From contig JAIPHU010000009.1 of the NCBI GenBank assembly GCA_021735045.1, positions 1 through 32,000 of the forward strand: a stretch of 32,000 nucleotides of DNA, written 5' to 3'. Made by a program: the position numbers and the translations under genes. The notes under the pieces were generated by a model. That model was not told the origin of the DNA. It saw only the letters and a program-made list of their open reading frames with translations, and did not search any database. The DNA comes from Candidatus Omnitrophota bacterium. Lineage in GTDB: Bacteria > Omnitrophota > Gorgyraeia > Duberdicusellales > 4484-171. The stretch's first letter is position 1. Each line of letters begins with the position of its first letter. Shown here piece by piece: positions 1 to 18,636 of the stretch.

Positions 1-154
1 TTGCAGTTTTTAAGGTTTTAAAATCACCTATTGCTTCAATAATCTTTGCCTTCTCAATAGCCTGGAAGGCATTGGGAGCAATAATTGCAGCCAGGATAGC
101 GATAATAGCTATAACTACAATAAGTTCGATTAAAGTAAAAGATCTTTTAAACAT
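1..154 (-). CDS. Type IV pilin / T2SS pseudopilin-like protein, N-terminal fragment (gene runs off the window start)
   Basis: Not in the ORF track. The reverse complement from the ATG at 152-154 reads [51 protein letters not shown]. This is a prepilin-type leader with FTLIEL (Glu+5), a hydrophobic alpha-1 helix and Ser at -1. A GGGG SD-like run lies just upstream. Confidence 0.85.
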
Positions 155-182
155 AACTACCCCTTTTTTTTAACCTAAGTAA

Positions 183-191
183 ATTATAACA
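183..191 (-). promoter_or_regulatory. Candidate extended -10 promoter for the pilin gene at 1..154
   Basis: The minus strand reads TGTTATAAT (TGn + perfect TATAAT) about 30 nt upstream of the ATG. No convincing -35 element. Confidence 0.35.
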
Positions 192-229
192 TAAATATTA
201 ATAGATTTATAATGATTTTTGGCCTAAAT

Positions 230-991
230 TTAATCAAGAGGAGATCTAAAATGAAAAATCAACAGTAACAATAAACAAACTACAACTAAATATTTAACTA
301 GATTGAAAATAAAGTGCCAACCAAGATTGGCCTTCTTTAATATCTTAAAATCCTTAAGATACACAACCTCACAAGCACCATTGCCCTTATCAGTTCTTGT
401 TACGCTTGAACTTCTTGCAAAATTATTTTTTTTATTATCAGCAAAATAAGTTACCAAATACCCTTTAAGATAAATTTGATCTCCCTTTGCTACTCTTTTT
501 AGACTTTTTTTAATTTCTGGATCATCTACCAAAATATGATTATTGGACAAATAGCTTAAATCAAACTTTGCCCAATCTTTTTCAGCTGTATCCGAGTTAA
601 CCCCCACCCTACAAGTCCAGCTTCCACTGCTAAATTTCATTCTAGTATAGGCGTTATTTTTAAGATTATCACCCCAGATAACACAAAAATCATTAACATT
701 TAAGTAATCACCCCAATTTTTATGATAAATATCCCACCAAACCCTAGAATCATGCAATGAAACAACTAAACCATACAAAACATAATGATAGAGAGGCTTA
801 ACTACATAATCAACCCCAGAGGCCTCTACCTTAAAATCAGAAAGATTGGTTTTTTCTTGAAAAGGAGATTGATATAACTGAGGTAAAATTTCATCTTTTT
901 TGGGAAGCTTTCTTTTAAAAAAAAATGAAGCAACTAATAAACCGATACTTATATACAAGATTAACCGAATTATGATCTTTACTTTATTCAT
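230..991 (-). CDS. Hypothetical bitopic membrane protein (N- and C-terminal hydrophobic helices, Trp/Cys-containing central domain)
   Basis: Long ORF. I prefer the ATG at 989-991 (MNKVKIIIRLILYISIGLLVASFFF) over the track start at 1024, which is a TTG. A second hydrophobic segment lies at the C-terminus (VVVCLLLLLIF). I recognise no family. Confidence 0.65.
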   Translation of the reverse strand: MNKVKIIIRLILYISIGLLVASFFFKRKLPKKDEILPQLYQSPFQEKTNLSDFKVEASGVDYVVKPLYHYVLYGLVVSLHDSRVWWDIYHKNWGDYLNVNDFCVIWGDNLKNNAYTRMKFSSGSWTCRVGVNSDTAEKDWAKFDLSYLSNNHILVDDPEIKKSLKRVAKGDQIYLKGYLVTYFADNKKNNFARSSSVTRTDKGNGACEVVYLKDFKILKKANLGWHFIFNLVKYLVVVCLLLLLIFHFRSPLD

Positions 992-1068
992 AAAAAATAG
1001 TAACAAATTATCTTTTTCCGGCAAAGATTAACTTTATTCTAAATACCAACCAAAACAAAAAAACCACC

Positions 1069-1884
1069 CTAAAATTTACTTTTTATTTTTGGTTTATTCT
1101 TTAAAGATTTTCGCTCCAAGTAATATTTTTTTCCAAAAGGATCCGAGGGTATTTTATCTAGCAAATCCTTTTTTACTAATTCTTTTAAAGAAATAGGCCA
1201 TTGTTTATACAAATTTTTATAATCTTGTATTTTCTTTTCTAAAAAAATTATATTTTTTAACCAATTTATTTTATTTTCCATTATTCTTTTTACGTTCTTA
1301 TCTTTGACAGTTTTTAACAAAGTCTGAAGATAAACAATACCCTGCTGGTAGTTCTGATTTTTATAATAAAAAAAAGGAAGGTTAGTTTTTATATAGCCCG
1401 GGCTATTAGGCTTATTAGCCGCTTTTTTATAATACTCAATAACTTTAGAATAAATTCTTAACTCTAGATAGTTAAATCCAATCCAATAAGGTATCCTCCA
1501 GCTAGAAGGATTAAGCTCTAAGCCTTTTTTCAAAAGAGAAATACCTTTTAATATATCTTTTTTGTTTTTCGGTACTACTACTGCCCCTAAAAAATAAGCT
1601 TCTTTTATTTTAGGATTTAACTCAATAGAGGTTTCAAACAAACTCATAAGATTATCAGTTTGTTGAGGCCTATTTTCACTAAGTCCTAAAACCCCTTTAA
1701 TAAATAAAAGCTCAGCTACTAAAGGCTGAAATGTACCAGTTGTGATTTTTAGGGTTTTAGCGGGAACTAAAAAATAATTTATTTTTTGCTGAATCGGTGA
1801 CTTTTTTGATAAATAAAAAGAAAGGATTATTGTAAAAATGAAAAAAAGGGAAAATAAAGTAAAAGAAAACTTTCTTGAATACAT
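1069..1884 (-). CDS. Membrane-anchored TPR-repeat protein
   Basis: N-terminal hydrophobic helix (FTLFSLFFIFTIILSFYL). TPR-like 34-residue repeats follow (e.g. AYFLGAVVV...GISLLKKGLELNPSS, YWIGFNYLELRIYSKVIEYYKKAANKPNS). The start abuts the permease stop (TAAATG junction at 1882-1887). Confidence 0.7.
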   Translation of the reverse strand: MYSRKFSFTLFSLFFIFTIILSFYLSKKSPIQQKINYFLVPAKTLKITTGTFQPLVAELLFIKGVLGLSENRPQQTDNLMSLFETSIELNPKIKEAYFLGAVVVPKNKKDILKGISLLKKGLELNPSSWRIPYWIGFNYLELRIYSKVIEYYKKAANKPNSPGYIKTNLPFFYYKNQNYQQGIVYLQTLLKTVKDKNVKRIMENKINWLKNIIFLEKKIQDYKNLYKQWPISLKELVKKDLLDKIPSDPFGKKYYLERKSLKNKPKIKSKF

Positions 1885-2640
1885 TTAATGTTCTTTATAT
1901 GAAAAAATTAAATTGGCTAAGAAAAAACAAAATAGGATATAACAAATAACATAAGATACTATAAATAAAATATTCTCTGTTTTTAAAGATTGACCGTAGA
2001 CCGCTAAATACTTAAAATCCAATTTATCGGCATTAGGAATAATATAATAAACAACTTTAGCCATAACGCCCCCTACAACAATCTTTGTTGTTCCTGCTAC
2101 TTTATAAGCTCCATAAGCAAGTTCAGCACCAATATAAAGAAAAAATAAACAAGAAGCTGATAAAAGAGGGTAGTTAAACACAACTGAAAGTAATAAAGCC
2201 AAGGCACAGAATATAGAAAGTTTTAGAAAAATGCCAAATGGCCCCAAAAGGAAAAAGAAATTAAAGTTTTTTCCTAATATTAAAATAAGACAAAATGAAG
2301 CAATTATTATATAAAAAAAGCAAGTCAAAAGATAACCTGCTAACTTTGCTCCCAAATAGGTTAAGGAAGAAAAATGGGAAAGATATACCTCCTGAAGACG
2401 AGTCTCTTTTTCTTTATAAAAATTAAAAACAAAACCAATAGCTATAAGTAATAGTGCAGTGGCTTCAACTATTGAAAGAGCAGCTATTTTTAAAGCTGTA
2501 TATTTTTCTCCCAAAGATAGTTGGCCTAAAAATAATGAAAATCCTAATAGAAAAATAAACAAGAAACCAATAGCCCAAAAAGTTTTTTCTTTTATAATAA
2601 TTTTAAAATTAAGTATAGTTAAAAAAATAAATTTTCTCAT
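1885..2640 (-). CDS. ABC-2 type transporter permease (multi-pass membrane protein)
   Basis: 251 aa and almost entirely hydrophobic, with about six predicted helices. It lies immediately downstream of an ABC ATPase with a 2-nt gap. Family assignment rests on context and architecture. Confidence 0.7.
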   Translation of the reverse strand: MRKFIFLTILNFKIIIKEKTFWAIGFLFIFLLGFSLFLGQLSLGEKYTALKIAALSIVEATALLLIAIGFVFNFYKEKETRLQEVYLSHFSSLTYLGAKLAGYLLTCFFYIIIASFCLILILGKNFNFFFLLGPFGIFLKLSIFCALALLLSVVFNYPLLSASCLFFLYIGAELAYGAYKVAGTTKIVVGGVMAKVVYYIIPNADKLDFKYLAVYGQSLKTENILFIVSYVICYILFCFFLANLIFSYKEH

Positions 2641-2642
2641 AT

Positions 2643-3338
2643 TTATTCTAACTCTTTTAGGTAAGCCTCTTCTAAAGAAAAGGTGTTATGTTTTTCTAAA
2701 AACTGACTTACTAACCCAGTATATTTGATTTGCCCCTTATCTAATATTGATATTCTTTTACACTTTTTTTCTATATGAAAAAGATCGTGTGAAGCAAAAA
2801 GAATAGTTTTACCCTCATTGTTTAAAGTAGTTAGCAAATCAAGTATCTTAATTTGAGCTTGAGGATCAAGGCCTAAGGTAGGCTCATCTAAAATAATAAA
2901 CTCTGGACTTTTTATTAAAACTTGAGCCAAACCTAATTTTTGAATCATGCCTCGAGAATAGTTTTTTGCTTTTGTATGAAAATCAAGCTCTAATTGAGTT
3001 AAGATATTTTTTATTTTTTCAGATGAAATATCTAAAGACAAACCAAGATATTTTAAAAATTGAAAAGCAGACAATTCGGCTGGAGGAAAAAAGTTCTCAG
3101 GCAGATACCCAAAATATTTATGAATAAATTTTTCTAAAGGCTGGCCTTTAAAAAATATATTTCCTTTATCGGGAACCAACAGATTAACTAAGCATTTAAT
3201 TAAAGTAGTTTTACCTGCCCCATTAGGGCCTAAAACGCCATAGATTTCACTCTTTTTTATTTTAAGATATAAATTTTTTAATACTGTTTTTTTTACAAAA
3301 AATTTTGTAAGACCTTCTACCTCTAAAAATGGACTCAT
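2643..3338 (-). CDS. ABC transporter ATP-binding protein
   Basis: Walker A GPNGAGKTT, signature-like YSRGMIQKLGLA, Walker B FIILDEPTLGLD and H-loop FASHD. Confidence 0.9.
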   Translation of the reverse strand: MSPFLEVEGLTKFFVKKTVLKNLYLKIKKSEIYGVLGPNGAGKTTLIKCLVNLLVPDKGNIFFKGQPLEKFIHKYFGYLPENFFPPAELSAFQFLKYLGLSLDISSEKIKNILTQLELDFHTKAKNYSRGMIQKLGLAQVLIKSPEFIILDEPTLGLDPQAQIKILDLLTTLNNEGKTILFASHDLFHIEKKCKRISILDKGQIKYTGLVSQFLEKHNTFSLEEAYLKELE

Positions 3339-3375
3339 TAATTACTTCTTCTTAAATAGTCATATTTTTAATAAT

Positions 3376-3951
3376 TTAAAGAGCGTCTTCGACAACTACC
3401 CAAATAGTATCATCTCCACTACAGTAGCACCAGTTCGCACCTGAACCACACTGCCGGAATAAACCAGTAGTTAAATCTCCATCATCTACTTTTTCGTCAA
3501 GTTTCTCAGCTGTAGCGTCACTTATATCACAATTATTTCCGGAACCATCATAACAATTATTTTCAAATTCCAGCCAAATCTCCTTTGCAGCTCCACCAGT
3601 ACAGTTAGAAGCCTGCATCACGTAAGTACCTTCCCAGGGAGTTTTACCTTTAAGCTTATCTAGATAGGGGCCATCCCAGCCAGCCATACCTCCGGGATCT
3701 TCAATTAACTCCGTATAGTTATCCATTGCAACATAGTTCTTCGAACCACTATAATGGGCATCTGTGCCCCACTTTCCGGTATCTGCATATAAAGTATAGA
3801 GAGCTGTTTTGTAAGTTTTAAAATCACCAACTGCCTCGGTAATCTTTGCCTTCTCAATAGCTTTAAACGCATTAGGAGCAATAATTGCAGCTAAAATTGC
3901 AATGATCGCAATAACTACAATCAGCTCGATTAAAGTAAAACCTTTCTTCAT
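3376..3951 (-). CDS. Type IV pilin / pseudopilin-like protein (Cys-rich, acidic C-terminal domain)
   Basis: [36 protein letters not shown], with a G|FTLIEL cleavage/methylation motif. GWDGPYL motif and six Cys in the C-terminal half. The true start is the ATG at 3949-3951, preceded by GGAGGCAAA. The track extension to 4014 would read through an intergenic hairpin. Confidence 0.85.
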   Translation of the reverse strand: MKKGFTLIELIVVIAIIAILAAIIAPNAFKAIEKAKITEAVGDFKTYKTALYTLYADTGKWGTDAHYSGSKNYVAMDNYTELIEDPGGMAGWDGPYLDKLKGKTPWEGTYVMQASNCTGGAAKEIWLEFENNCYDGSGNNCDISDATAEKLDEKVDDGDLTTGLFRQCGSGANWCYCSGDDTIWVVVEDAL

Positions 3952-3982
3952 TTTGCCTCCCTCTTGTCTTGCCCTTCTACTT

Positions 3983-4006
3983 AAAGAGGGGGAGCACCCC
4001 CTCTTT
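3983..4006 (-). terminator. Perfect 10-bp GC-rich stem-loop between two pilin genes (attenuator or mRNA-stabilising hairpin; no U-tract)
   Basis: aaagaggggg-agca-ccccctcttt. It sits 31 nt after the stop of the 4037..4549 pilin. A hairpin directly after the major pilin gene is a common way to set pilin stoichiometry. Confidence 0.4.
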
Positions 4007-4036
4007 AGTATCATTAAAACTTTAGGTTAAAGCAAC

Positions 4037-4549
4037 CTAGTCTTCTGAAACTAATATTTGTACATCTGTTGTTGCAGAAGTTCCATATCTAACAGAACCA
4101 TCATCATTATCTTCTTCTCCATCTAAATTTTCATCAATCTTTACAGCTGCTGCTTGAGGAACATCGGAAATTAATACATATCTTTCTTCGTTGGCGTCAT
4201 TATCCCAAGCTACACAATCTCCATCATCAGAATCAGTTACAACACACCAAGCATAATCTCCGCCCCAACTTGCCTTATTCGGCCATTTTTCTAAATAGGG
4301 GCCATCCCAGCCAGTTACATTATTATCATTATTAACAAACCCTGTACCATCATCTTCTTGATCTGGCCATGTTCCTGTATCAGCATAAAATGACATTGCC
4401 CCTGTTTTAAGTGACTTATAATCTCCTACTGATGCTGACACTTTTGCCTTCTCAATAGCTTTAAACGCATTAGGAGCAATAATTGCAGCTAAAATTGCAA
4501 TGATCGCAATAACTACAATCAGCTCGATTAAAGTAAAACCTTTCTTCAT
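4037..4549 (-). CDS. Type IV pilin / pseudopilin-like protein, very acidic C-terminal domain (candidate major subunit)
   Basis: The first 35 aa are identical to the 3376..3951 pilin. GWDGPYLEK motif. Asp-rich loops (DSDDGDC, DGEEDNDDGS) resemble Ca-binding loops of GspG-type pseudopilins. Strong SD AAAGGAGGT. Confidence 0.85.
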   Translation of the reverse strand: MKKGFTLIELIVVIAIIAILAAIIAPNAFKAIEKAKVSASVGDYKSLKTGAMSFYADTGTWPDQEDDGTGFVNNDNNVTGWDGPYLEKWPNKASWGGDYAWCVVTDSDDGDCVAWDNDANEERYVLISDVPQAAAVKIDENLDGEEDNDDGSVRYGTSATTDVQILVSED

Positions 4550-4651
4550 AACTAACCTCCTTTAAGAAACAACACCTTATTTAATTATTTTATATTAAAT
4601 TGCTTTTTAAGCAGAGCCTAAAATAATAATTTTTACTAATAATTTTTGTAA

Positions 4652-5164
4652 TTAATCGGGCTCAACAAAAGCAATATTATATACTGCATTATCTAGATCT
4701 TGGTCTGAACCTTCACAAGTATCTTTACTAAGTTCAACTGAATCAGTTTCTTTACGTCTAAACCCTAAAACAGGTGCAGAAGTATCATTAGTTGCATCAG
4801 AATCACACCAATCAACAGAATGTGACGGATCATAAGCATAATAAAATTGAGACGAACTATTTTTATATAATGGGTCTTTGGGAATTCCACCTCTTATGTA
4901 GGGCTTTAGTACATTTTCAATATTACTTGACCCATCAAATTTTTCTCCAGAACTAGAAACCCCATCATCAGCTTGATTTGGATACCTCCCATTATCATCA
5001 TAAAATGACTCTAGGGCTAAAGCAATAGTATTTATATCTGAAACTCTTTTTGCATCACGGGATTTTTCCATAAAATTTACAGCATTAGGAATAATAACGC
5101 CTAACAAAATAGCTATAACTGCTATTACCACCGAAAGCTCGATTAAAGTAAAACTTTTTTTCAT
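4652..5164 (-). CDS. GspG-like pseudopilin / type IV pilin-like protein
   Basis: MKKSFTLIELSVVIAVIAILLGVIIPN... followed by RDAKRVSDINTIALALESFYDDNGRYP and IPKDPL, typical of GspG-family pseudopilins. The start at 5162-5164 is preferred because the candidate -10 element lies downstream of the track start at 5191. Confidence 0.8.
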   Translation of the reverse strand: MKKSFTLIELSVVIAVIAILLGVIIPNAVNFMEKSRDAKRVSDINTIALALESFYDDNGRYPNQADDGVSSSGEKFDGSSNIENVLKPYIRGGIPKDPLYKNSSSQFYYAYDPSHSVDWCDSDATNDTSAPVLGFRRKETDSVELSKDTCEGSDQDLDNAVYNIAFVEPD

Positions 5165-5181
5165 AAAATAACTCTTCTTTA

Positions 5182-5210
5182 AAAATAGCATAATTACTTT
5201 TACAAGTCAA
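5182..5210 (-). promoter_or_regulatory. Candidate sigma70-type promoter for the pilin gene block
   Basis: The minus strand reads TTGACT-17 nt-TATTTT. It lies in the gap between the ATPase stop and the first pilin ATG. Confidence 0.4.
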
Positions 5211-5240
5211 CAAATTATGCCTTAATAATCTTGGATCAAA

Positions 5241-6908
5241 CTAAACATTAATTTCCTGGGTAACACGAAGAACTTCCTCAACTGTAGTCTCTCCAGCTAA
5301 TAACTTGTTAATTGCTGCTTGCCTTAAAGTCACTAAACCTTCTTGACAAGCAACTTTTCTTATTTGTGAAGAAGAAGCTCTTTTTAAAATTAAATCCTGA
5401 ATAGACTTGCTATTTTGTAATAGTTCATAAATACCAACCCTGCCTTTGTAGCCGGTCCCATTACAATTTTTACAGCCTTGGCCTTTATAAAATTTAGCAT
5501 CTTTATATTCATCTGGGTTTAATTCCAACGACTCTAGTATTTCTTGAGAAGGTTTATACTCTTTTCTACATTTACCACAAACTACTCTTACCAACCTTTG
5601 GGCTAAAACTCCTAAAATTGAACTCGAAACTAAGAATGACTCTATCCCCATATCAATAAGACGTGTAAAGGCAGATGAAGAATCATTGGTATGTAAAGTC
5701 GATAAGACCAAGTGGCCAGTTAAAGCAGCTTGAACAGATATTTGCGCAGTTTCTAGATCCCTTATCTCACCAACCATAATTATATCTGGATCTTGCCTTA
5801 AAAAACTACGTAAAGCACTAGCAAAAGTTAATCCTATAGCAGGTTTCATTTGTACTTGCCGCATACGATGAAATTGAAACTCTACTGGATCTTCAACAGT
5901 CATAACATTTACATCTTCCTTATTTAATATCTGCAGGCCAGAATATAAAGTAGTGGTTTTACCCGAACCAGTTGGCCCGGTAACTAATAAAATTCCGTAA
6001 GGAGAAAGAAGCAGTTTTTTAAATAAGTCCAACTCTCTTTTTTGAAAGCCTAAAGAATCAAGCCCTAAAACTAGACCTGACTTATCTAATATTCTTAATA
6101 CAACATTTTCGCCATAGATCATAGGACAAATTGAAACTCTAAAATCGATCTGTTTTGCTTCAATATTCATTCTAATTCTACCATCTTGGGGAAGACGTTT
6201 TTCAGAAACATCCAGATCAGATAAGATTTTTATTCGCGACGATACCGCAGACTGAATAAATTTAGGCAACACATAACGTTTCCTCAAAATTCCATCTATT
6301 CGATAACGAACATTTACTGTTTTTTCTTCAGGTTCTATATGTATATCTGAAGCTTTATCGTGTACGGCTTTACTGATTAATAAATTTACTAACTTTAAAA
6401 TATTTGCTTCTTGAGAACGATCGCCCTTTTCTAAATCCTCCTGATTAATAGCCGCTATTACATCTTCAACGCTACCAGAAGTTTTATAATAATGCTCAAT
6501 CGCCCATGATATATCAGCCTCTGTAGCTAGCATAGGTTTAATCTTATAACCACTTTTTCTTTGTAGTTGATCTAGGGCAAAAACATCATTAGGGTCGGTC
6601 ATCGCTACTGTTAAAACATCCTCATGTTTAAATAAAGGCATAGCTTTAAATTTTCGTGCTTGGTCCTCGCCTACCAAAGAAAGTATCTCAGATTCAATTA
6701 CATAGTCTGCAATGCTAACCAATTCAGTTTCCATCTGAGAAGCTATTGCTTCATTGATTTGATAAGCTTTTGCCCAACCTCTTTCTACTAAAATTTCCCC
6801 TAATTTTTGATTAACAATTTTCTGTTCAGCAAGAGCTTGCTTTAAGACATGTTCAGTTATAATACCCCGAGATACTAACAGTTCACCTATTTTCTGTTTT
6901 TTTGCCAT
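5241..6908 (-). CDS. GspE/PilB/MshE-family secretion-pilus assembly ATPase
   Basis: Walker A GPTGSGKTT. Asp/His boxes (MVGEIRD, LTGHLVLSTLHTN). Tetracysteine CGKC...CKNCNGTGYKGR. N-terminal T2SSE_N/MshEN-like helices. Confidence 0.92.
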   Translation of the reverse strand: MAKKQKIGELLVSRGIITEHVLKQALAEQKIVNQKLGEILVERGWAKAYQINEAIASQMETELVSIADYVIESEILSLVGEDQARKFKAMPLFKHEDVLTVAMTDPNDVFALDQLQRKSGYKIKPMLATEADISWAIEHYYKTSGSVEDVIAAINQEDLEKGDRSQEANILKLVNLLISKAVHDKASDIHIEPEEKTVNVRYRIDGILRKRYVLPKFIQSAVSSRIKILSDLDVSEKRLPQDGRIRMNIEAKQIDFRVSICPMIYGENVVLRILDKSGLVLGLDSLGFQKRELDLFKKLLLSPYGILLVTGPTGSGKTTTLYSGLQILNKEDVNVMTVEDPVEFQFHRMRQVQMKPAIGLTFASALRSFLRQDPDIIMVGEIRDLETAQISVQAALTGHLVLSTLHTNDSSSAFTRLIDMGIESFLVSSSILGVLAQRLVRVVCGKCRKEYKPSQEILESLELNPDEYKDAKFYKGQGCKNCNGTGYKGRVGIYELLQNSKSIQDLILKRASSSQIRKVACQEGLVTLRQAAINKLLAGETTVEEVLRVTQEINV

Positions 6909-6924
6909 TTTAAAACCTATCTAT

Positions 6925-8553
6925 TTATTCTGTATCACTTTGCAAGACATTCAAAGCCTTGTTTACTTTATCTTGACGATTTTTTACGTTAATCAGCTTT
7001 GGAATAATTTTTAAAAACTTATCCACACTAGCATAACCACCTGTTAATTGTTTAACTTTATAAAACTTTTTATAAGCTTGCTGGTATTGCTTTTGCCTAT
7101 ATAGAGACACTCCCTGTGAATATAGCTTCTCCGCTGTATTTTTTTCCTGAGATTTTACCTCTTTTTTCTTTAGTTCGGTTTTTTTAAGCTCTTCTATTGC
7201 CCTTAAACTTCGAGGAATTTTTACTTTCAAATAATTTTTAGCCTTAGCGTTTCCCGGATCTAAACTAAGGATCTGTTGAAATAGATTTTTGGCTTTTTTA
7301 AACTTTTTATTTTTATAGAGTTTTTGAGCCTCTTGGTGCAAAGCCTTAACCTTTTCTTCTCTATTTATTTCTTTTTCTGCTTTTTTCTCTTCCTCTGCCA
7401 CTTTTACTCTTTCTTCTTTTTGTATCTCTTTAAACTCTTGTGGTTTCCTTATTTTTTCTTGCTGTACTACTTGAGTCAATTTTTCTTTACCCGATAAAAG
7501 CGGTTCGCCAGTACTAATAATTTTAGGAGAAACCATGATTAGAAGTTCTGTTTTTTGCTTTTCTTCTTTTGTACTTTTAAAAAGATTACCTAAAAAAGGA
7601 ATATCGCCTAAAAGCGGAACTTTTGTTATTCCATGAGAAGTTTTCTCTTTAATCAAACCGCCGATAACTACAGTTTGGCCTTCTTTTACTGTTACTTTTG
7701 TCTGAGTTACCCGAATATCTGTTTCAGGCAACTCAGGTGTTCCACTAGCACCTTCAGGAGTAACTTGAGCAATAAAACGAGTGATTTCTTTTACTTCTGG
7801 ATGAATATCTAAAGTAATTGTACGATCAGGATTTATTAAAGGAGTTACCTCTAGGGCTACCCCTTCATCAGCATATTCATATTCATAAGTATAGGTAGTA
7901 TCAGTGCCTGATTCTGTTTCTTGATCTTCCTTTTCTACTTCTGATAAATAAGGAATAGTAGTCCTTACATCTATTTTAGCCCGAAGATTGTTTTTGGTAG
8001 CAATTTTAGGGGCAGAAAGAATATCTGTATCAAGTTGAGTAGTTAAAGCTTTTAAAACAACTTCTATATTATCGTCAAAAATACCAATAGTGAAAGGATC
8101 TTGCTGGGAAGACCCTGAAATCGGTTTATAGTAAGGTTTTCGAAATGGTATTTGTTGATCTAACGAAGAATCTGCCGCTGAACCTAAAGTAGCACTACCA
8201 CCTAAATCTAACCCTCCTTCTTTCCATAATTTCCAGGTAACCCCTAAAGAATGCTCTTTATCTAAAGAAACTTCCACTACCCTTGCTTCGATAAGAATTT
8301 GTTCACTTGGATTATCAGCCATTTTTAAATACTCTTCAATCATAGCAATATTAGGAGAATGATCTATAACCAATATGGAGTTGCTTTCTGTATCAGGTAT
8401 AATTTTACCCGACTCAGAAAGAAGATTAAGAAGAGTCTCAGAAGAAACTTCTCCGGAGCCTTTTGATGAAGGCTGAGCAAAAACAAAAGGCATATTACCT
8501 AAAACAATAAAAACTGAAAGAAAAACTACACCTATTAATTTAACAAATTTCAT
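6925..8553 (-). CDS. Secretin (outer-membrane pore subunit) with C-terminal coiled-coil/TPR extension
   Basis: Signal peptide MKFVKLIGVVFLSVFIVLGNMPFVFAQ. One N-domain (NSILVIDHSPNIAMIEEYL). Secretin core ILIEARVVEV ... VPLLGDIPFLGNLFKS...ELLIMVSPKII. About 190 further aa are K/E-rich with TPR-like repeats. Confidence 0.88.
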   Translation of the reverse strand: MKFVKLIGVVFLSVFIVLGNMPFVFAQPSSKGSGEVSSETLLNLLSESGKIIPDTESNSILVIDHSPNIAMIEEYLKMADNPSEQILIEARVVEVSLDKEHSLGVTWKLWKEGGLDLGGSATLGSAADSSLDQQIPFRKPYYKPISGSSQQDPFTIGIFDDNIEVVLKALTTQLDTDILSAPKIATKNNLRAKIDVRTTIPYLSEVEKEDQETESGTDTTYTYEYEYADEGVALEVTPLINPDRTITLDIHPEVKEITRFIAQVTPEGASGTPELPETDIRVTQTKVTVKEGQTVVIGGLIKEKTSHGITKVPLLGDIPFLGNLFKSTKEEKQKTELLIMVSPKIISTGEPLLSGKEKLTQVVQQEKIRKPQEFKEIQKEERVKVAEEEKKAEKEINREEKVKALHQEAQKLYKNKKFKKAKNLFQQILSLDPGNAKAKNYLKVKIPRSLRAIEELKKTELKKKEVKSQEKNTAEKLYSQGVSLYRQKQYQQAYKKFYKVKQLTGGYASVDKFLKIIPKLINVKNRQDKVNKALNVLQSDTE

Positions 8554-8564
8554 TATTATCCTCC

Positions 8565-9452
8565 TTATTCGGATTCCTTTATCCCTTCAATTTCTTCTCT
8601 TTCTTCTTCTCTTTCTTCTCTTTGCAATTTGCGCTCTTGCCTTTCTTTTTCCAGCAATTTTGGAAATAGTTGTTTTACAGAAATATAATCTATTTTAAAT
8701 ACTCTTGTTGTTAACTTTTGGTCTATCAAATTTACAAAATTTTCCACCTGTTCAACATAGCTAGGATAATCTATGACCACCAAAGAGTTAGTTGATTTGT
8801 TAGGAATAATTTTACCATAAGAAGAAAGTAGGTCGTAAATATCGCCTCTGCTGCCTCTTGCTGCAATCAACTGAGGTGTTTGAGAGGTTGCTTGGGTTTT
8901 TTGAGTTTTAGCTGTTTGAGTTCCACCAGAGGTAGTTTTTCCTTTAGAAGTTTTGCTATCATCTTCTTCTAAAATCGAAGAAACAGTAGCATTCTTTAAA
9001 GGAATAATCTTGGTGACCAAACTTGGTTTTACGGTGATTATTTTTCCTTTTTTTTCTAAAGCTAGCCCTTTTTGTTCGACTATAATATCCAACGCTTCTT
9101 CAAGAGATACATTTGTAAGACTGGCAGTTATCTCACCTTCTACTTTTTGATCAACAATGATATTTAAATCATAATCATGAGCAACTAATCTAAAAAAATC
9201 CTGCAAAGGAACTCGCCTTAGCTCTATCGAATATTCTGGTTCTTCTTTTTCTAGGCGTTTAATCTCCATCAAAGGAGTTTGTTCGGTGATTTCTTTCTTT
9301 TTTTTAGGTACAGCTACAGAAGAAGACTTCTGCTTTTTACTTTGAGAAGTACTTCCTCCAGGTTGAGCTTGTGCCTCTGCATTTTTTTTATCTAAACCTA
9401 TAAATGTAATAAATACAAAAACGAAAGCTAAAAATAATTTTAATAATTTCAT
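8565..9452 (-). CDS. Secretin N0/N1-domain-only periplasmic protein (separate N-terminal module of the secretin)
   Basis: Own signal peptide (MKLLKLFLAFVFVFITFIG...AEAQA). STN/N0-like VPLQDFFRLVAHDYDLNIIVDQKVEGEITASLTNVSLEEALDIIVEQKGL. N1-like STNSLVVIDYPSYVEQVENFVNLID. There is no beta-barrel core. Charged E/R tail. Confidence 0.6.
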   Translation of the reverse strand: MKLLKLFLAFVFVFITFIGLDKKNAEAQAQPGGSTSQSKKQKSSSVAVPKKKKEITEQTPLMEIKRLEKEEPEYSIELRRVPLQDFFRLVAHDYDLNIIVDQKVEGEITASLTNVSLEEALDIIVEQKGLALEKKGKIITVKPSLVTKIIPLKNATVSSILEEDDSKTSKGKTTSGGTQTAKTQKTQATSQTPQLIAARGSRGDIYDLLSSYGKIIPNKSTNSLVVIDYPSYVEQVENFVNLIDQKLTTRVFKIDYISVKQLFPKLLEKERQERKLQREEREEEREEIEGIKESE

Positions 9453-11404
9453 TTACCACCCCTTTTTAATTGGGACATAATATCACCAATAACATTTTTA
9501 AACTCATATTTATCCACTTTTTTTGATCCAACTATTGCAACAGTATCTTTTATTATTTTAGCAGTTATTTTATCATTATTTTGGTTAACCCAGATAAAAT
9601 TTTCAACATCTGTTTTCTCTTCTACTGAATATTTCCCTGCTTTAATCCATTTTTTAAACACATCATAATAAAAAGCTGCATCTTCATAACTATTCCATTT
9701 AGTTAAAAAAACAATTAGTTGTCTATCACCCTTCCTTTTATATAGAGTTATTTGATCATTTTCCCATCCTAAGGCCGCATTTTTTGCCAGATCAGTATTT
9801 AATCTGGATTGAAGCGACAAAAAGATAAAATATTCACCTAAAGAGGTAGAATAGATATTATGCCATTCGTTACTTAATTTAACACCCTTAACCTCTACTG
9901 AGCCAGCTCGTTTTTTATCAGATCTTTCTATCTTTTCTCTGAAGCTATAAAGCAAAGGATGCATAATTTCTCTAGCTGTTGTAGGAGGATTTTTATAAAG
10001 CAGACTGATATCTTCCCAGCTATTATCTTGAAGCCAATTTTGGATAAAATCTGCTCCGTACCCATAAACATTATAAAAAAGATTATTATTAATTAAAGAA
10101 CTATTTTTAATTATCTTTTGTTCTATAAAATTTGTTATATCTCCTAACTCTGTAAAACTTTCGTTTTTCTTACTTAAAAGATATTCTGCTTCCACAGCTG
10201 TTGCTTCCCCTTCAACTAAACTATTAAGAGCAAACTTGTAGTCTTTGTTATATTTAGTAGATTTCGTTAATTTATTAAGATCTAATTTTTTATCCTGGAA
10301 AGCATGGACTAACTCATGAACAAGAACTATCTCCGCTACTGCCGGATCAAGGTAATCTCCAAGATATATCACTTTATCTTCTGGCTCATAGAATCCAGCT
10401 ATTAACGCAGCATCGGAACTGTTTATAACCAAATCTTGATAGTCTATTTCCTCGGGAATAAGATTAAGCCATTTAAAGACTACCCCTTCATTTTCTATTA
10501 ATTCTTTTGTATATTGGTTTTTTATCTGTTCTATCATAACGTTGCGCATTATGGAACGATTTACAAATTTTATTTTCAAGGCTTTTATATCTTCAAGACT
10601 CCATCCCCTTAACCTAGCAACTGCCTCTTTAAGTTCATTAACCTTATCCTTTAATTCTTTCTTTTCTTTTCTTACTTGTTGAGTTATATATTGAGGAGTA
10701 TTAAAATTAAACTTTTTATCATAATCTTTATATTCTGTTCGATGTAATATTTTCTCATACCCCATTGTCCCTTCAATTTCTTGAAATACAGGTAAAAAAT
10801 TATCTCGATTTATCCAAACCTTAACTTCTAAATCTGCAATTAACATTTTTTGCTTAAACATTGCCGGATCTAACTTATAAGAAATCAGATAACAAATCTT
10901 ACCTTTTTTCTTTTTTTGCCCTAAATACTCTAGACTGTCTTCAACCCATCTATGTTGATTAATATAAAATAAACTTTCGATTAAAGAATACTCTAATCTC
11001 TCTTGATCTTTTTTATCACTAATAGATAAAGATTTATTTTCCCATCTTCTTTCTTTTGAATTCCAAACAAAGGGTACTCCTCTGATAACATACTGTTGAA
11101 CCCAAGACGAACTAGAATAATCTAGGTTCGGTAACAAAGACGAAACGCTTGCTCGTCCTGTAACTTTTAAATTATCAAAATTTTTTATTAGATTTGTGGT
11201 AGAGATCTTCCAATGAAAAGAACGTGATTGAGCCCAATAATTAACAAGTGCCTTTACCGAATCTATTTGATAGAAGGAGTTGTTCATGGTTTGAATTAAT
11301 CGTAAAGGTGAAATTTTACCCTCATAATATATATTTTGCCCATAAGATAAGGGTAAAAATAAAATTAAAAGTATAATAAATAAAATGCTTAATTTATTTC
11401 TCAT
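9449..11404 (-). CDS. Secreted HExxH zincin-like protein (putative metallopeptidase)
   Basis: Signal peptide MRNKLSILFIILLILFLPLSYG. HELVH at nt 10304-10318, followed 30 residues later by LVEGEATAVEAEY (a gluzincin-type third-ligand candidate). ATGA overlap with the next gene at 9449-9452. Confidence 0.6.
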   Translation of the reverse strand: MRNKLSILFIILLILFLPLSYGQNIYYEGKISPLRLIQTMNNSFYQIDSVKALVNYWAQSRSFHWKISTTNLIKNFDNLKVTGRASVSSLLPNLDYSSSSWVQQYVIRGVPFVWNSKERRWENKSLSISDKKDQERLEYSLIESLFYINQHRWVEDSLEYLGQKKKKGKICYLISYKLDPAMFKQKMLIADLEVKVWINRDNFLPVFQEIEGTMGYEKILHRTEYKDYDKKFNFNTPQYITQQVRKEKKELKDKVNELKEAVARLRGWSLEDIKALKIKFVNRSIMRNVMIEQIKNQYTKELIENEGVVFKWLNLIPEEIDYQDLVINSSDAALIAGFYEPEDKVIYLGDYLDPAVAEIVLVHELVHAFQDKKLDLNKLTKSTKYNKDYKFALNSLVEGEATAVEAEYLLSKKNESFTELGDITNFIEQKIIKNSSLINNNLFYNVYGYGADFIQNWLQDNSWEDISLLYKNPPTTAREIMHPLLYSFREKIERSDKKRAGSVEVKGVKLSNEWHNIYSTSLGEYFIFLSLQSRLNTDLAKNAALGWENDQITLYKRKGDRQLIVFLTKWNSYEDAAFYYDVFKKWIKAGKYSVEEKTDVENFIWVNQNNDKITAKIIKDTVAIVGSKKVDKYEFKNVIGDIMSQLKRGGK

Positions 11405-11918
11405 AATAAATATTATTTAATCTTAAAACATATTCTTTACCTAAAAAATCTTTAAGAACTATAGATTCTGGTTCTATTTTCAATATTTTGTAGTTACCTA
11501 TTATATCATTCTCTTTAACTACTCTCCCGTCAACTATAGCATAAGACTTTTTTGAAGAATAAAATATAGAAGAAAGAACAAATTCTCTATACCGTTGGAC
11601 CTCTTCTCGTTTTAATTTTTTCAACTCTTCCCGTTCTTTATAAGTAAGAAAAGGATTAAATTTTTTTCTTTTGCCGCTCTGCTTATCTCCTAATTTTTTT
11701 TCTTCTGAAAATTTATGGCTTGAATACAAAGAACTTTCAGCCGAAAATCCATCCTCTCTTTGTAATCCATCCTGATATCCTTGTTCTCCCTGATTTTGCT
11801 GATCAGCCCTTAAGTTTTGCCATTTATTTTTTATAAAAGGAAATAAAGCAATTAATAAAGCCCCCACTATTACTGCCACCCCTATAATACCGACTAACTT
11901 ATTTTCTTTCCAATTCAT
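11394..11918 (-). CDS. Membrane-anchored protein with PilP/GspC-like C-terminal beta domain
   Basis: N-terminal TM helix (LVGIIGVAVIVGALLIALFPF) and a low-complexity linker. The C-terminal YAIVDGRVVKENDIIGNYKILKIEPESIVLKD...YVLRL resembles secretin-binding HR/PilP domains. 11-nt overlap with the downstream gene. Confidence 0.45.
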   Translation of the reverse strand: MNWKENKLVGIIGVAVIVGALLIALFPFIKNKWQNLRADQQNQGEQGYQDGLQREDGFSAESSLYSSHKFSEEKKLGDKQSGKRKKFNPFLTYKEREELKKLKREEVQRYREFVLSSIFYSSKKSYAIVDGRVVKENDIIGNYKILKIEPESIVLKDFLGKEYVLRLNNIYYEK

Positions 11919-11937
11919 AACTTTTATTTACCTATAT

Positions 11938-12126
11938 CTATTCTTCCTGTCCAAGAATTTTTTTTAACTCTCTTACTCTTTTTAAACTATATCGTCTCCA
12001 GTGATTTATAGGATTTCGGCTCGATTTAGGAAAAATTCCTTTTTTTTCATAGCGCTTAATGGTTTCCTTAGAAATTCCTAACTCCTTAGATAGTTCTTGA
12101 ATTGTATAATATTTATTTTTTGCCAT
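11938..12126 (-). CDS. Small MerR/excisionase-type (HTH_17-like) DNA-binding protein
   Basis: 62 aa. YYTIQELSKELGISKETIKRYEKKGIFP... is a typical helix-turn-helix. It is the first gene after a strong promoter-like element. Confidence 0.7.
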   Translation of the reverse strand: MAKNKYYTIQELSKELGISKETIKRYEKKGIFPKSSRNPINHWRRYSLKRVRELKKILGQEE

Positions 12127-12199
12127 GTTACACCCTGCTACTATAGCTTACTATATTCTGACCCCCCTTAGGGTATCTTTCTCTATCTATTTACTAGTA

Positions 12200-12229
12200 A
12201 TTATATCTTGGATACTATAACAGCGTCAA
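12200..12229 (-). promoter_or_regulatory. Candidate sigma70-type promoter of the HTH-led secretion operon
   Basis: The minus strand reads TTGACG-18 nt-TATAAT, about 70 nt upstream of the HTH ATG. Confidence 0.5.
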
Positions 12230-12258
12230 GTTAAATTTTTGAAAAAAAATCACCTTTT

Positions 12259-12301
12259 TACAATATATAGGGGGGATAAAAATTGCATACTATATATTGT
12301 A
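12259..12301 (-). terminator. 12-bp perfect inverted repeat downstream of the 1021-aa ORF (terminator-like)
   Basis: tacaatatatag (12259-12270) pairs with ctatatattgta (12290-12301). On the minus strand a T8 run follows about 10 nt after the stem. The stem begins 18 nt after the stop codon at 12319-12321. Confidence 0.4.
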
Positions 12302-12318
12302 GATAACCAAGGAAATCA

Positions 12319-15300
12319 TTAAAATGGAAGGGTTTTATTGTTTGCTTGGCCAAAGATTTGGCCTAAATTATCGATAGTTTCGATTTTGATAATATTGAAG
12401 GTAAAACCTTGGAAAGTTTGCAGATCAAAAGGAAGTTGAAGCTGAGTTGAGTTGATACCTTGGCCTTGCACGTCTAGATTTATCTGAGCCGGAGTCAGAT
12501 CAATTCCACCTTTATTATCAATCCCACCGGGAGCCTTTTCCGGGGAAGGATTAGAACTACCCCCGGCGGATTGATTTTCATCAAATAATAATAACTGTTG
12601 TTCTATTTTATTGCTACTCTCTTCATTTTCTGGTATCTGTTCTTTAACCTTGTATGATTCCGTTTCATCGACTATTCTTTCTGCCATATCTTTTGATAAC
12701 CACATCCACGTATTATCAATAGCATCTTCTTCTGAAAGAAATTCCAAAGTAGAAGAAGCCGCAACCCTAAAACCAAGTTGTTCAAAGTATTCTCTGGGAA
12801 TATTTTTAGCTTCTCTTTCTGCTTCAGCAGGATGCACCATAATAATACCTTTACTATCCTCTGCAATAGTTTGATCATTATTACTCAATTCTATAGCTTT
12901 AGTTAAAATTACCTTACCGAAACCTTGGCTCTTACGATATTCTTGGGAAACTTCAATAAAATCTCCTATATAAAATTCTTTAGCACCTTCATTTTCATCT
13001 TTCATACTTAACCCTTTGTGAAAATAGCCCAAACCTAAAATTTCACCTGTATCTAAAGCTTCCAACATCACTAAATAACCATTAGGATAAGCGTTAATAG
13101 CTTGATTTTTCCATCGCCAACTTTTAAAAAACCTTTCTTCTCCTCTTTGCTTGGCTTGCTCAAACCATTTATTTATTGTTTCTTCCATATTGTTACGATC
13201 ATTAATAACTTCTACAGCATATTCAACTCCACTGTTTGTTTTATATATATCGTTATCTTCCTTTACCTCTGACTCTCCCCCTACCCTATTTTTAATCAAA
13301 GTTCTTCTCTCGGCTTGATTGAATTCTGCCTCATGTTTAATTAATAGTTTTCTTATATTGTTTCGTTTTTCCGAAGAAGAAACATCGATAATTAATCTCC
13401 CCTCTTTGTCTTTAGAAAATAATGGTTTAAAACTCTTAATTGAATCTTTACCAAAACCTGTAACAGCTAATTTAGTCAACTTTCCTATAAAACCAAGAGG
13501 TTTTGACTTAAATTCGTAATTGTCTAAATTAGAAAAATAAGATTCAAAAACAGGATTGGGCTTATCTACTATACTACCATTAGGCCTTTTTTTATACCGC
13601 CACAAGAGAGGGGAAGTTGCTTCAATAGAAATTATACCTTTCATTTGAGGCTCTGTTTCTATTCTATTCAATACTTCTTCTATCGCTATTAAGGAATCTT
13701 TGAATATGGCCTGATAAGGATTATTTTGCTTTTTTAACTCGTTAAGATTAGCTAAAACATGTAAAGTTATTTTTTTGCCTTCTTTGTAAGCAGTCATATA
13801 TTTAGTTGTTTTTAAAAAATTAAAAAGTTTTGTCTGCAACCAAGCATTTAAAGACCAAGCAATCCTTGCACCTAAACTCATTCCTACCAAATATCCCAGA
13901 ACACTTAAAGAAGAACTAATGTACATTCCAGAAATAAACCCTAGGCTAAATGCTCCGCCTAACGTCAAAGAAGTACCTATTAGCAATTCCGGAATTGTTT
14001 TTTTAAAGTATGTAGTTAAATCCTCTAAAAAACTCCCGCCACTACCTTCTCCTGTTCCGGAGGTGCCAGGACCGGTTCCGGAGCCAGTATCTGCGCCAGT
14101 GCCAGTGCCGCCTTCGCGCCCACCTTGAACTTCACCAGTAACACCAGTTCCAGCTAATCCTTCTGCTACCGGGTTAATCTTTACGCCTACACCTAAGGAG
14201 CTGCCTGCAACTGGCAGGCCTGTAGCTGGCATAACAGGGGTAGTTTGTAAATTTGAAGCTAAAGCAGTACCATCAAAGCCGCCGGAATAATATTGCCTGC
14301 GGATTTGGCGCCTTAAGTGAGGGTCGTAGTCGGTTTTAATAAAATCATAAACTCCCTTCTTGTAGGCTTTCACATAACGGGCATAGATTTTATCCTTTGC
14401 TTGTTTATCCTCAAGTTCTACACCTTTGATTTTATTTTTGTCCAGATAAATTTCAGATAAAATAGTTTTCTTTAACTTCTGCTTAAACCAAATCGCTAGA
14501 ATCAAAGCCGAATAAACTTGACGCAGAGAGGCAAAATTTTTACCTTCGTTAATTTCTTTGGCAATTGCCGGAAGAATTATTTCTTTAGTTACTTTAGAAG
14601 AGATGCCGCTTAACTCTTGGGTATCTTTTTTATCTAATTGATCGGTTCCAATATCTTTATTGTCTAAGTTTTTATCCAGGGCAAGATAATCTTGCTCCAG
14701 CATCACTTTCAGCTTCGCTTTGGTCACATAGCCGGTATTGCCATTTTCATAAACTTGAGCCTCAGCCGGAACGATCCAAATTTTATTAAAAGTATTAATC
14801 GGAATATTGGTAGTTCCGTATTTTTGATAAGCTTTTTTGTAAACTTTATCCCAAAACTTCTTCCCTGACGGGCTTTCCGGATAAGTAAGTGAAGAAAGGA
14901 GTTGTTTTAGAATATAGTCTTGGCCGAGTAACTCTCTGCCTAAATCAGTTTGGCCTAAACCAGAAGGGATAATCCTGTCTTTTTCGTAAGGAGATAAATT
15001 AACCCAAAGGTCATCTTCGGGCACAGTTAAAGAAGCCAGAAAATAACGAATTAATTCTTCTGATTCTTTTTTTAGTTCTTCTTTTGATAAATCACCCCTG
15101 TCACCGGTATCAACTATAAAATTAAATTCAAAAGGATTAGCCGGATTAATCCGCAGGCCGCGGACCATCGGCGGCACAAAATTGGGAGTTGGCTCAAGCA
15201 ATTGGTCAGGAGCAGGTAAGGTGGATGCATAACTTTTCGGTTGATTTCTGCTTACAAAAGGAATCAGGGCGGATAATAAAAAAGCGCTGATTAGAAAAAT

Positions 15301-15384
15301 TATCAGGCACTTAAAAGAAAGGTGGGCTTTCTTTTTGGTTAAAAATAAAATAAAATTCGATTGATTTTCGTTCCTTCCCCGCAT
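12319..15384 (-). CDS. Large multi-domain membrane protein with C-terminal GNAT acetyltransferase-like domain
   Basis: Domain order: N-terminal anchor, a domain of about 320 aa (LPAPDQLLEPTPNFVPPMVRGLRINPANPFEFNFIVDTGD...), a Gly/Thr/Ser linker, two hydrophobic helices, a region of unknown function, and a GNAT motif A (QEYRKSQGFGKVILTKAIE at nt 12892-12945). A distinct C-terminal module follows (GGIDLTPAQINLDVQGQG...). AAGGGA SD. Confidence 0.8.
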   Translation of the reverse strand: MRGRNENQSNFILFLTKKKAHLSFKCLIIFLISAFLLSALIPFVSRNQPKSYASTLPAPDQLLEPTPNFVPPMVRGLRINPANPFEFNFIVDTGDRGDLSKEELKKESEELIRYFLASLTVPEDDLWVNLSPYEKDRIIPSGLGQTDLGRELLGQDYILKQLLSSLTYPESPSGKKFWDKVYKKAYQKYGTTNIPINTFNKIWIVPAEAQVYENGNTGYVTKAKLKVMLEQDYLALDKNLDNKDIGTDQLDKKDTQELSGISSKVTKEIILPAIAKEINEGKNFASLRQVYSALILAIWFKQKLKKTILSEIYLDKNKIKGVELEDKQAKDKIYARYVKAYKKGVYDFIKTDYDPHLRRQIRRQYYSGGFDGTALASNLQTTPVMPATGLPVAGSSLGVGVKINPVAEGLAGTGVTGEVQGGREGGTGTGADTGSGTGPGTSGTGEGSGGSFLEDLTTYFKKTIPELLIGTSLTLGGAFSLGFISGMYISSSLSVLGYLVGMSLGARIAWSLNAWLQTKLFNFLKTTKYMTAYKEGKKITLHVLANLNELKKQNNPYQAIFKDSLIAIEEVLNRIETEPQMKGIISIEATSPLLWRYKKRPNGSIVDKPNPVFESYFSNLDNYEFKSKPLGFIGKLTKLAVTGFGKDSIKSFKPLFSKDKEGRLIIDVSSSEKRNNIRKLLIKHEAEFNQAERRTLIKNRVGGESEVKEDNDIYKTNSGVEYAVEVINDRNNMEETINKWFEQAKQRGEERFFKSWRWKNQAINAYPNGYLVMLEALDTGEILGLGYFHKGLSMKDENEGAKEFYIGDFIEVSQEYRKSQGFGKVILTKAIELSNNDQTIAEDSKGIIMVHPAEAEREAKNIPREYFEQLGFRVAASSTLEFLSEEDAIDNTWMWLSKDMAERIVDETESYKVKEQIPENEESSNKIEQQLLLFDENQSAGGSSNPSPEKAPGGIDNKGGIDLTPAQINLDVQGQGINSTQLQLPFDLQTFQGFTFNIIKIETIDNLGQIFGQANNKTLPF

Positions 15385-18551: not shown

Positions 18552-18621
18552 TGTTAATTGGTTAATTTGTTAATTGGTTAATTGGTTAATTAACCACTCA
18601 CCAATTAACTACTCACTAATT
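18552..18621. repeat. Octamer tandem array (KGTTAATT x5) abutting the trpS start codon, plus a CACTCACCAATTAACTACTCAC module
   Basis: 18552-18591: tgttaatt ggttaatt tgttaatt ggttaatt ggttaatt. The 12-nt palindrome ggttaattaacc lies at 18584-18595. Confidence 0.85.
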
Positions 18622-18636
18622 CGTATATCCCCCTGG

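Follow-up and report, generated by a model that had tools for sequence, protein, structure and literature searches.

Does the gene string at the start of the Candidatus Omnitrophota contig JAIPHU010000009.1 encode a filament machine that has lost essential parts, or is it the beginning of a complete one? The stretch of DNA that was analyzed, referred to here as the window, comprises the first 32,000 nucleotides of this contig. In an earlier note on it, positions 1-12229 were described as a locus resembling type II secretion systems (T2SSs) and type IV pili, with a secretin, an ATPase, and prepilin genes beside an HExxH protein and an ATP-binding cassette (ABC) module. Two explanations were offered there: an unusually reduced or rewired machine, or missing parts that lie beyond position 1 or elsewhere. 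Further sequence of the locus shows that the parts do lie beyond position 1. With a probability of about 0.75, the region is the promoter-proximal part of one operon for a complete type IV filament machine, of the type IVa pilus (T4aP) kind, in Omnitrophota. Domain calls were made through Pfam and NCBIfam profile searches with curated cutoffs, and PDB sequence and profile searches were also used.

All of the operon's genes are on the minus strand of the window, which is AT-rich (G+C about 26-41% in 1-kb windows), and every open reading frame listed in the earlier note was recovered there at its position. The profile searches detected no GspF, PilD, PilM/N/O, or PilT in positions 1-12229, in agreement with the absences reported before. 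An exact-protein look-up led to a locus, L001 (GCA_021735365.1, annotated as Candidatus Omnitrophica), which differs from the window at a single one of 11,884 bases and supplies 8.9 kb of further sequence beyond window position 1. An independent Logan assembly, L002, agrees with the window at the positions checked. Past the window start, six pilin or minor-pilin genes precede the genes for a GspF/PilC platform protein (L001 15004-16197), a PilM-PilN fusion (L001 16207-17904), and a PilO-like protein (L001 17891-18556). The latter three belong to the same operon and lie about 3.1-6.7 kb past the window start. Genes for TGT, TrmD, and L19 come next, and the operon is thus taken to end after the PilO-like gene. 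In full, it comprises 22 genes in ~18.9 kb, with 12.2 kb inside the window and ~6.7 kb beyond it. Intergenic gaps range from -11 to 102 nt, and no convincing candidate for an internal terminator was found within the operon. The two couplings reported before, an 11-nt overlap at 11394-11404 and an ATGA overlap at 9449-9452, are both exact. Since the L001 extension carries platform and alignment genes, the machine is not reduced, and the appearance of a reduced machine was produced by the window edge. The earlier note had also considered that platform, peptidase, and alignment genes might follow in canonical order. The platform and alignment genes do follow, but no peptidase gene accompanies them, and their order departs in part from the canonical one.

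Pfam and NCBIfam agree with the earlier calls of a split secretin, an ATPase with MshEN and T2SSE domains, prepilin genes, and an HExxH protein. The ATPase gene (5241-6908) encodes a 555-aa PilB-type extension ATPase with an N-terminal MshEN domain (T2SSE 449 bits, MshEN 71 bits). Its top NCBIfam model is PilB (TIGR02538) with 646 bits, below the equivalog cutoff of 676, versus 606 bits for GspE. An MshE-related motif for binding cyclic di-GMP (c-di-GMP) passes its cutoff (59 bits, cutoff 38). In the PDB, full-length PilB/PilF proteins were matched over residues 5-550 with ~518 bits, and the core of GspE alone with ~403 bits. The earlier label of an MshE-type ATPase holds for the MshEN domain, but the protein as a whole is closest to T4aP PilB. 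The platform protein (397 aa, three transmembrane (TM) helices) matches GspF models and, in two stretches, T2SSF (157 bits). The 565-aa fusion matches PilM_2 over residues 6-334 (45 bits) as well as the pilM model (59 bits), and has a TM helix at residues 363-381 and a periplasmic tail. Its ortholog in another Omnitrophota locus, L173, additionally matches PilN. T2SSL, the GspL family, is absent among the Pfam and NCBIfam matches of the fusion. The 221-aa PilO-like protein is bitopic and was assigned by its position and by weak collinear similarity to its counterparts in loci L172 and L174, the former of which matches Pfam PilO. The system can be filed as a probable T4aP-type type IV filament system with T2SS-like subunits because its ATPase is PilB-like, its fusion matches PilM and not GspL, and T4aP clusters occur in nearly all classes of Omnitrophota, according to a survey of T4aP and Tad genes across the phylum (Seymour et al., 2023; PMC10066038). 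In such a machine, a c-di-GMP-responsive PilB would drive PilC, pilins would be polymerized from the inner membrane, and the PilM-N and PilO proteins would align the platform.

The unusual genes of the operon are also found elsewhere. The split secretin (SecN and SecC), the HExxH protein (DUF8575), and the ABC module recur in other Omnitrophota loci, with proteins 35-62% identical to those of the window, and they are thus not chance neighbors. In L003 (DUF8575 protein 55% identical) and L004/L005 (37%), genes for a helix-turn-helix (HTH) protein, an inner-membrane anchor, DUF8575, SecN, and SecC were found in this order. L172, from another Omnitrophota metagenome-assembled genome (MAG), has a PilB that is 62% identical to that of the window and keeps the order DUF8575, SecN, SecC, PilB, pilin, ABC ATPase, permease, tetratricopeptide repeat (TPR) protein, four minor pilins, PilC, PilMN, and PilO, with identities of 26-62%. 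The trio of ABC ATPase, permease, and TPR protein is beside pilins in L173 and L174. The L173 cluster has a T2SS-like order of PilB-PilZ, GspF, GspG, GspK, PilMN, and PilO. The comparison of gene order that the earlier note had proposed has therefore found the layout kept in L003, L004/L005, and L172 and the trio in two more loci, and the view that this order matches no standard layout stands, with its odd genes recurring in the phylum. The two-gene secretin family, the embedded DUF8575 protein, and the pilin-linked ABC trio appear to be undescribed in the literature searched; the class of system itself is already known in Omnitrophota.

SecN (8565-9452) has 295 aa, with a signal peptide, STN/N0 and N1 domains, and a charged tail, and has no pore domain; Pfam STN and Secretin_N are above cutoff. 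SecC (6925-8553) has 542 aa and lacks N0; its signal peptide is followed by N1, the pore domain of secretins, a coiled coil, and a tail of TPRs (Secretin 157 bits, TPR_2 34 bits, plus Secretin_N). The two genes are 11 nt apart, and AMIN domains are absent from the pair. Among loci without DUF8575, the closest relative by ATPase, L092, possesses a single unsplit secretin of 583 aa. SecN aligns to residues 9-249 of this protein and SecC to residues 168-560. These alignments overlap, so N1 is present in both pieces, and the N1 of SecN is 38% identical to that of SecC (E 4e-7). The alignments suggest that the pair arose by partial duplication, with N1 copied, of one T2SS/T4P-type secretin. Each piece bears its own signal peptide, here as in L003, L004, and L172. 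Four lineages with SecN proteins 40-61% identical to that of the window have both genes intact. In an exhaustive search over 1.84 billion representatives, with clusters at 50% identity, standalone short SecN made up 79 of the 84 best clusters (E 1e-24 or better), so that at least 79 such clusters exist. A Met start was found in 77 of these 79 and an N-terminal hydrophobic segment in 64, and many share the charged tail ER..ER.EIKEI. All of the taxon-named clusters are from Omnitrophota. One standalone SecN of 270 aa, P0114, and the unsplit secretin of L092 (L092 4578-6329) have nearly identical N-termini, and fused and split secretins thus coexist among near relatives. In addition, large proteins with K/E/A/Q-rich repeat coiled coils (597, 532, and 263 aa) adjoin the secretin or TPR gene in L172 (4217-6010) and L174 (3644-6028), whereas in the window a coiled coil and TPR tail are fused to SecC.

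The gene upstream of DUF8575 (11394-11918) encodes a bitopic protein of 174 aa with a TM helix at residues 8-26, which is proposed to be the inner-membrane anchor. Its C-terminal domain is conserved, with homologs in L003, L004, and L092, and the L092 homolog bears an LTVGC lipobox, like PilP. The C-terminus resembles T2SSB (E 3.4e-4; 20.7 bits, cutoff 28.4) and CdsD_C (E 1.7e-3). The PilP/GspC-like character given to it in the earlier note is therefore reflected in these hits, but both are sub-threshold, and the domain can be called weakly GspB/GspC-HR/PilP-like. The T2SSB domain of GspB has the homology region (HR) fold of GspC and PilP and binds the N0 domain of secretins (PMC9239104). Because this fold binds N0, a chain from the 174-aa anchor to N0-N1 of SecN and on to N1 and the pore of SecC can be proposed. 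The HR-like domain would dock on SecN N0 as GspB, GspC, and PilP do on N0 elsewhere. The outer-membrane conduit would then be made of two polypeptides, with SecC as the channel and SecN forming or extending the periplasmic ring. That the N-terminal part of a secretin can have a gene of its own is documented for the rhizobial type III secretion system (Rhc-T3SS), where RhcC1, the N-terminal periplasmic part, and RhcC2, the pore part, are encoded separately in one cluster and the pore part has a TPR protein linked to it (PMC4500985). The rhizobial pore gene has been replaced by a Tad-like secretin, whereas both pieces here appear to come from one secretin, and the machine here is a type IV filament system and not a T3SS.

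Between the anchor and SecN is the gene for the 651-aa HExxH protein (9449-11404), which has a signal peptide and the motif HELVH...EGEA. It overlaps both neighbors, the anchor gene upstream and SecN downstream, an arrangement of translational coupling. Precomputed matches to DUF8575 (PF26686) exist for this protein and its relatives, and the Hvo_1808 model NF038145 covers residues 249-493 with 115 bits (cutoff 200). In the literature searched, Hvo_1808 is known solely as a haloarchaeal lipobox protein. Residues H363, E364, H367, and E398 are invariant across nine homologs, and a gluzincin-type active site is thus likely intact. The AlphaFold2 model is confident for residues 250-650 alone and gave no significant PDB match; PDB searches with DUF8575 returned solely a marginal match to the HExxH region of IrrE. 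The protein holds the same position in L003, L004/L005, and L172, and its coupling between anchor and SecN in these and the window, four lineages in all, suggests a role with that sub-complex. Its synthesis would be coupled stoichiometrically to that of the anchor and SecN, and it would most likely act with them in the periplasm or at the surface, whether as a factor for assembly or processing or as an effector delivered by the pilus. L173 contains a 282-aa signal-peptide HExxH protein of the Peptidase_MA_2 family (17875-18723, minus strand) between GspF and GspG. It was considered as a DUF8575 relative and ruled out, as hhalign shows no relation. Since the two are unrelated, exported zinc peptidases appear to have been recruited more than once to such Omnitrophota loci.

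The ABC trio begins with a 231-aa ATPase of the DrrA/NodI/GldA exporter type (2643-3338; ABC_tran 95 bits), whose top NCBIfam models are lantibiotic-protection, DrrA, and GldA ATPases. It is followed by a polytopic permease of 251 aa (1885-2640) with ~6 TM helices according to hydropathy. A gap of 2 nt separates the permease gene from that of the ATPase, and it directly abuts (0 nt) the gene of the TPR protein. The earlier name of ABC-2 permease fits its helices and its partner ATPase, but it has no relative in Pfam, NCBIfam, or the PDB and represents an orphan family. The third protein (271 aa; 1069-1884) combines a TM helix at its N-terminus with a TPR domain in the periplasm, and its family profile matches TPR structures over residues 75-195. 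Sixteen homologs of it were detected. All four with a taxon name are from Omnitrophota, and in all four contexts examined pilin genes adjoin. No pilus-specific NCBIfam model matched the permease or the TPR protein. The trio directly follows a pilin in the window, L172, L173, and L174, which represent four lineages, and the orthologs in L172-L174 are 47-54% identical for the ATPase and 43-46% for the permease.

This arrangement is similar to that of Myxococcus xanthus, where an ATPase, a polytopic permease, and an accessory protein also come right after the major pilin in a T4aP cluster (PMC3546991, PMC3724824). The products of pilA-pilG-pilH-pilI are said to form an ABC exporter complex that is required for pilus biogenesis (PMC3546991, PMC3724824, PMC6060248); the ABC-transport role of PilGHI is a proposal for which experimental data are lacking (PMC6060248). 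By analogy, the trio after the first pilin may be an accessory exporter for pilin handling or pilus biogenesis. The M. xanthus pilA-pilG-pilH-pilI operon was reportedly described by Wu et al. in 1998, and to our knowledge the mechanism of PilGHI has been unclear since. The two systems, which are compared by gene arrangement alone, also differ: the accessory gene is first in Myxococcus and last here, and the Omnitrophota trio has a permease of no known family and a TM-TPR accessory protein. ABC genes near PilB in L116, L147, and L167 were tried as comparators of the Myxococcus type and rejected, as they are upstream and in unrelated positions.

How firmly can this machine be called a T4aP? It shares with T4aP systems, including the Omnitrophota clusters (PMC10066038), an MshEN PilB-type ATPase, PilC/GspF, PilM, PilN, a PilO-like protein, a possible HR-like counterpart of PilP, a secretin, pilins with class III signal peptides, and a set of four minor-pilin genes. 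It differs in its fused PilM-PilN, its two-gene secretin without AMIN, the absence of PilT and PilD from the locus, its extra DUF8575 protein, ABC/permease/TPR trio, and MerR-type HTH gene, and its GspG-like pilins. Several of these points weigh against the assignment, as do others. The platform scores higher with GspF than with PilC (304 vs 224 bits), SecC with GspD than with MshL or PilQ (223 vs 192 and 190 bits), and the pilins score best with GspG, all below cutoffs. Neither PilT nor PilD turned up in the ~41 kb made up of the 32-kb window and the 8.9-kb extension, and PilD was not found in the L172-L174 loci either. The likeness of the 174-aa protein to PilP is sub-threshold, with no match for its family in PDB sequence and profile searches, and the roles given to SecN, the DUF8575 protein, and the ABC trio are read from position, coupling, and analogy. 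The main rival is a functional T2SS, in which a short GspG-like pseudopilus pushes folded proteins through the secretin, with the DUF8575 protein as the cargo or as one of several. Such a system would account for pilins that pass the Pfam T2SSG threshold, for the GspF- and GspD-like scores, and for the absence of PilT from these ~41 kb. It would also suit a PilM-N fusion that shares the architecture of GspL, and a DUF8575 protein whose HExxH...E motif is intact and which carries a Sec signal peptide. The latter could be an autonomous exported enzyme, since distant members occur outside pilus loci and its family is named after a haloarchaeal surface lipoprotein. L173, moreover, has the order E-F-G...K-L-M with another HExxH protein inside. 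There is a precedent in Escherichia coli, where sslE/yghJ encodes a metalloprotease cargo within a gsp operon. The resemblance to a T2SS with GspB/GspC, such as Dickeya Out (PMC9239104), extends to a bitopic inner-membrane protein with a putative C-terminal HR-type domain that may dock on N0, GspG-like subunits, a fused protein of GspL-like architecture, and a GspM-like partner. However, the ATPase matches T4aP PilB/PilF end to end and GspE more poorly, the fusion matches PilM_2 and not T2SSL, no PDZ domain and no GspC with HR and PDZ is present, and every T2SS equivalog model is below its cutoff. Five divergent major-pilin paralogs suggest an exposed filament, and the coupling of DUF8575 between two structural genes would be unusual for a cargo. 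Furthermore, a published TXSScan survey assigns Omnitrophota clusters to T4aP (PMC10066038). A functional T2SS therefore appears unlikely, although it is the strongest of the competing explanations. Classification as a mannose-sensitive hemagglutinin (MSHA) pilus was rejected: the MshEN c-di-GMP-binding ATPase, the fused, MshI-like PilM-N, the short secretin, and the TPR elements are shared, but MshL stays below its cutoff of 250 bits, no MshM-like ATPase gene is present, and the gene order is another.

Two further explanations were considered. A pilus for DNA uptake, as proposed for the type IV pili of other ultra-small, host-dependent bacteria, would fit Omnitrophota, which are mostly ultra-small with reduced genomes (PMC10066038), and PilB-driven T4aP with a secretin are reported to take up DNA in Thermus and Vibrio. 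Against it, ComEA, ComEC, and DprA were not found within the 41 kb and the accessory genes show no link to DNA, which makes a competence pilus improbable. Still more remote, and largely refuted, is the idea of decay or faulty assembly, according to which SecN is the pseudogene remnant of a frameshifted secretin in a locus that is chimeric or has lost part of its function. In its favor, the sequence comes from a MAG, the secretin genes lie almost end to end, and the near relative L092 has one fused secretin. However, each piece has its own start codon in addition to its signal peptide, and N1 in both does not fit a simple frameshift. The split form is intact in four lineages, the 79 or more clusters derive from assemblies independent of one another, with some of them on contigs as long as 132-914 kb, and the Logan assembly agrees with the window. 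A T4aP-type machine with T2SS-like subunits is the reading followed in the remainder of this text.

The pilin genes of this T4aP-type machine form a diverse set. Five pilins have the G/FTLIEL site and N_methyl above cutoff. Paralog 1 (4652-5164; MKKSFTLIEL...) has a GspG-like fold, with N_methyl and T2SSG above cutoff and TIGR01710 GspG at 59 bits, below cutoff. Paralog 2 (4037-4549; MKKGFTLIEL...) matches N_methyl, T2SSG, and PilW_C and has 47% identity with the pilin that comes first in L172 and in L174. Paralog 3 (3376-3951) matches N_methyl and T2SSG and belongs to repeat family D2. The fourth pilin starts at 154 and runs off the window, with its 5' part at 1-154 and the gene at L001 11731-12309, and the fifth lies beyond (L001 12299-12922). 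The N-terminal helix and a GWDGPYLE motif are common to all five. Paralogs 2 and 3 are identical over an 80-nt 5' segment (4470-4549 and 3872-3951; L001 7339-7418 and 7937-8016), which suggests that the pilin genes were recently duplicated or gene-converted. Pilin 5 has no start codon near G/FTLIEL and needs a leader of ~30 aa, which would begin within the terminal part of pilin 4; it may have an unusually long leader, be translationally coupled, or be a silent copy. The four minor-pilin-type genes (L001 13073-15003) encode 154, 134, 184, and 170 aa, of which the 134- and 184-aa products pass the N_methyl threshold and the other two have weak matches.

The 253-aa protein encoded at 230-991 has a TM helix at each end and a different history. 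Its family has 355 relatives in GTDB species representatives across many phyla, including Patescibacteria, Burkholderiales, Chromatiaceae, and Desulfobacterota. Loci were scanned with a subset of 14 sequences, as the 66-sequence alignment A1 was too diverse. A pilus gene was nearby in 4 of 80 loci and absent in the other 76. The gene is not in the pilus loci L172-L174, and in the nearest comparator MAG it is in an unrelated neighborhood. Its relatives elsewhere (loci L007-L091) are near genes for LpxB, a GT4 glycosyltransferase with Wzy_C, and ABC with ABC-2 proteins. The AlphaFold2 model has a predicted local distance difference test (pLDDT) value of 88 and no significant PDB fold match, and SNNH, GDQ, and GNGACE motifs are conserved. 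Judged by these relatives, its family is widespread and not one of pilus genes, and the gene represents a lineage-specific insertion. It was considered whether the whole ABC/permease/TPR/253-aa block had been inserted in this lineage; this was rejected, as loci found through the TPR protein show the trio beside pilins in three more lineages. The extra pilin copies and the 253-aa gene would thus be recent local additions.

The first gene of the operon (11938-12126) encodes an HTH protein of the MerR family, 62 aa, that consists of the DNA-binding domain alone (MerR_1 41 bits, above cutoff). It also heads the related loci L003 (83% identical), L092 (58%), and L004 (55%). About 70 nt upstream of its start codon is the sigma-70-like promoter TTGACG-18-TATAAT on the minus strand (12200-12229, read 12229-12200), which reads as described before. 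It is the top-scoring site in 1-12400, with 11 of 12 positions matching; the total of promoter-like sites in the region is not above that of shuffled sequences. From its sequence, the site can be considered a putative promoter. No riboswitch was detected in the operon leader, as Rfam and tRNA scans of the window were empty. Directly upstream of the operon (12319-15384, minus strand) is a gene for a 1021-aa protein with a single TM helix at its N-terminus and a middle part of low complexity, rich in Gly. This protein has no Pfam or NCBIfam match and a 43% tblastn match in the Omnitrophota locus L083. The window contains a second T2SSE ATPase (23641-24885, minus strand), flanked by the gene for a class II aminoacyl-tRNA synthetase on one side and ispG/GcpE on the other. 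It was tried as PilT and rejected, since it is TadA/CpaF-like (TIGR03819; 295 bits vs 60 bits for PilT), and it appears to be an orphan, with no other Tad genes around it in the window.

It is tempting to go further and to see in these loci a distinct Omnitrophota filament sub-class with three obligatory features: SecN as a bridging ring, the DUF8575 zinc peptidase in the sub-complex, and a pilin-handling ABC exporter homologous to PilGHI. This view is tentative, and we consider it rather doubtful. If it is true, the pilin-handling ABC module would be ancient and widespread and no myxobacterial oddity. As a gene arrangement, the pilin-adjacent trio is in any case a second instance of what is known from Myxococcus PilGHI, in a phylogenetically remote group. 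Omnitrophota, an abundant group of mostly ultra-small bacteria that have not been cultivated, are believed to attach to other cells or to prey on them, with type IV pili as the leading candidate for their organelle of contact. Their pilus operons appear to have a conserved non-standard layout, with a two-piece secretin, a zinc-peptidase-like protein, and a pilin-linked ABC exporter, which supplies targets for structure prediction, cryo-electron tomography of enrichment cultures, and comparative genomics.

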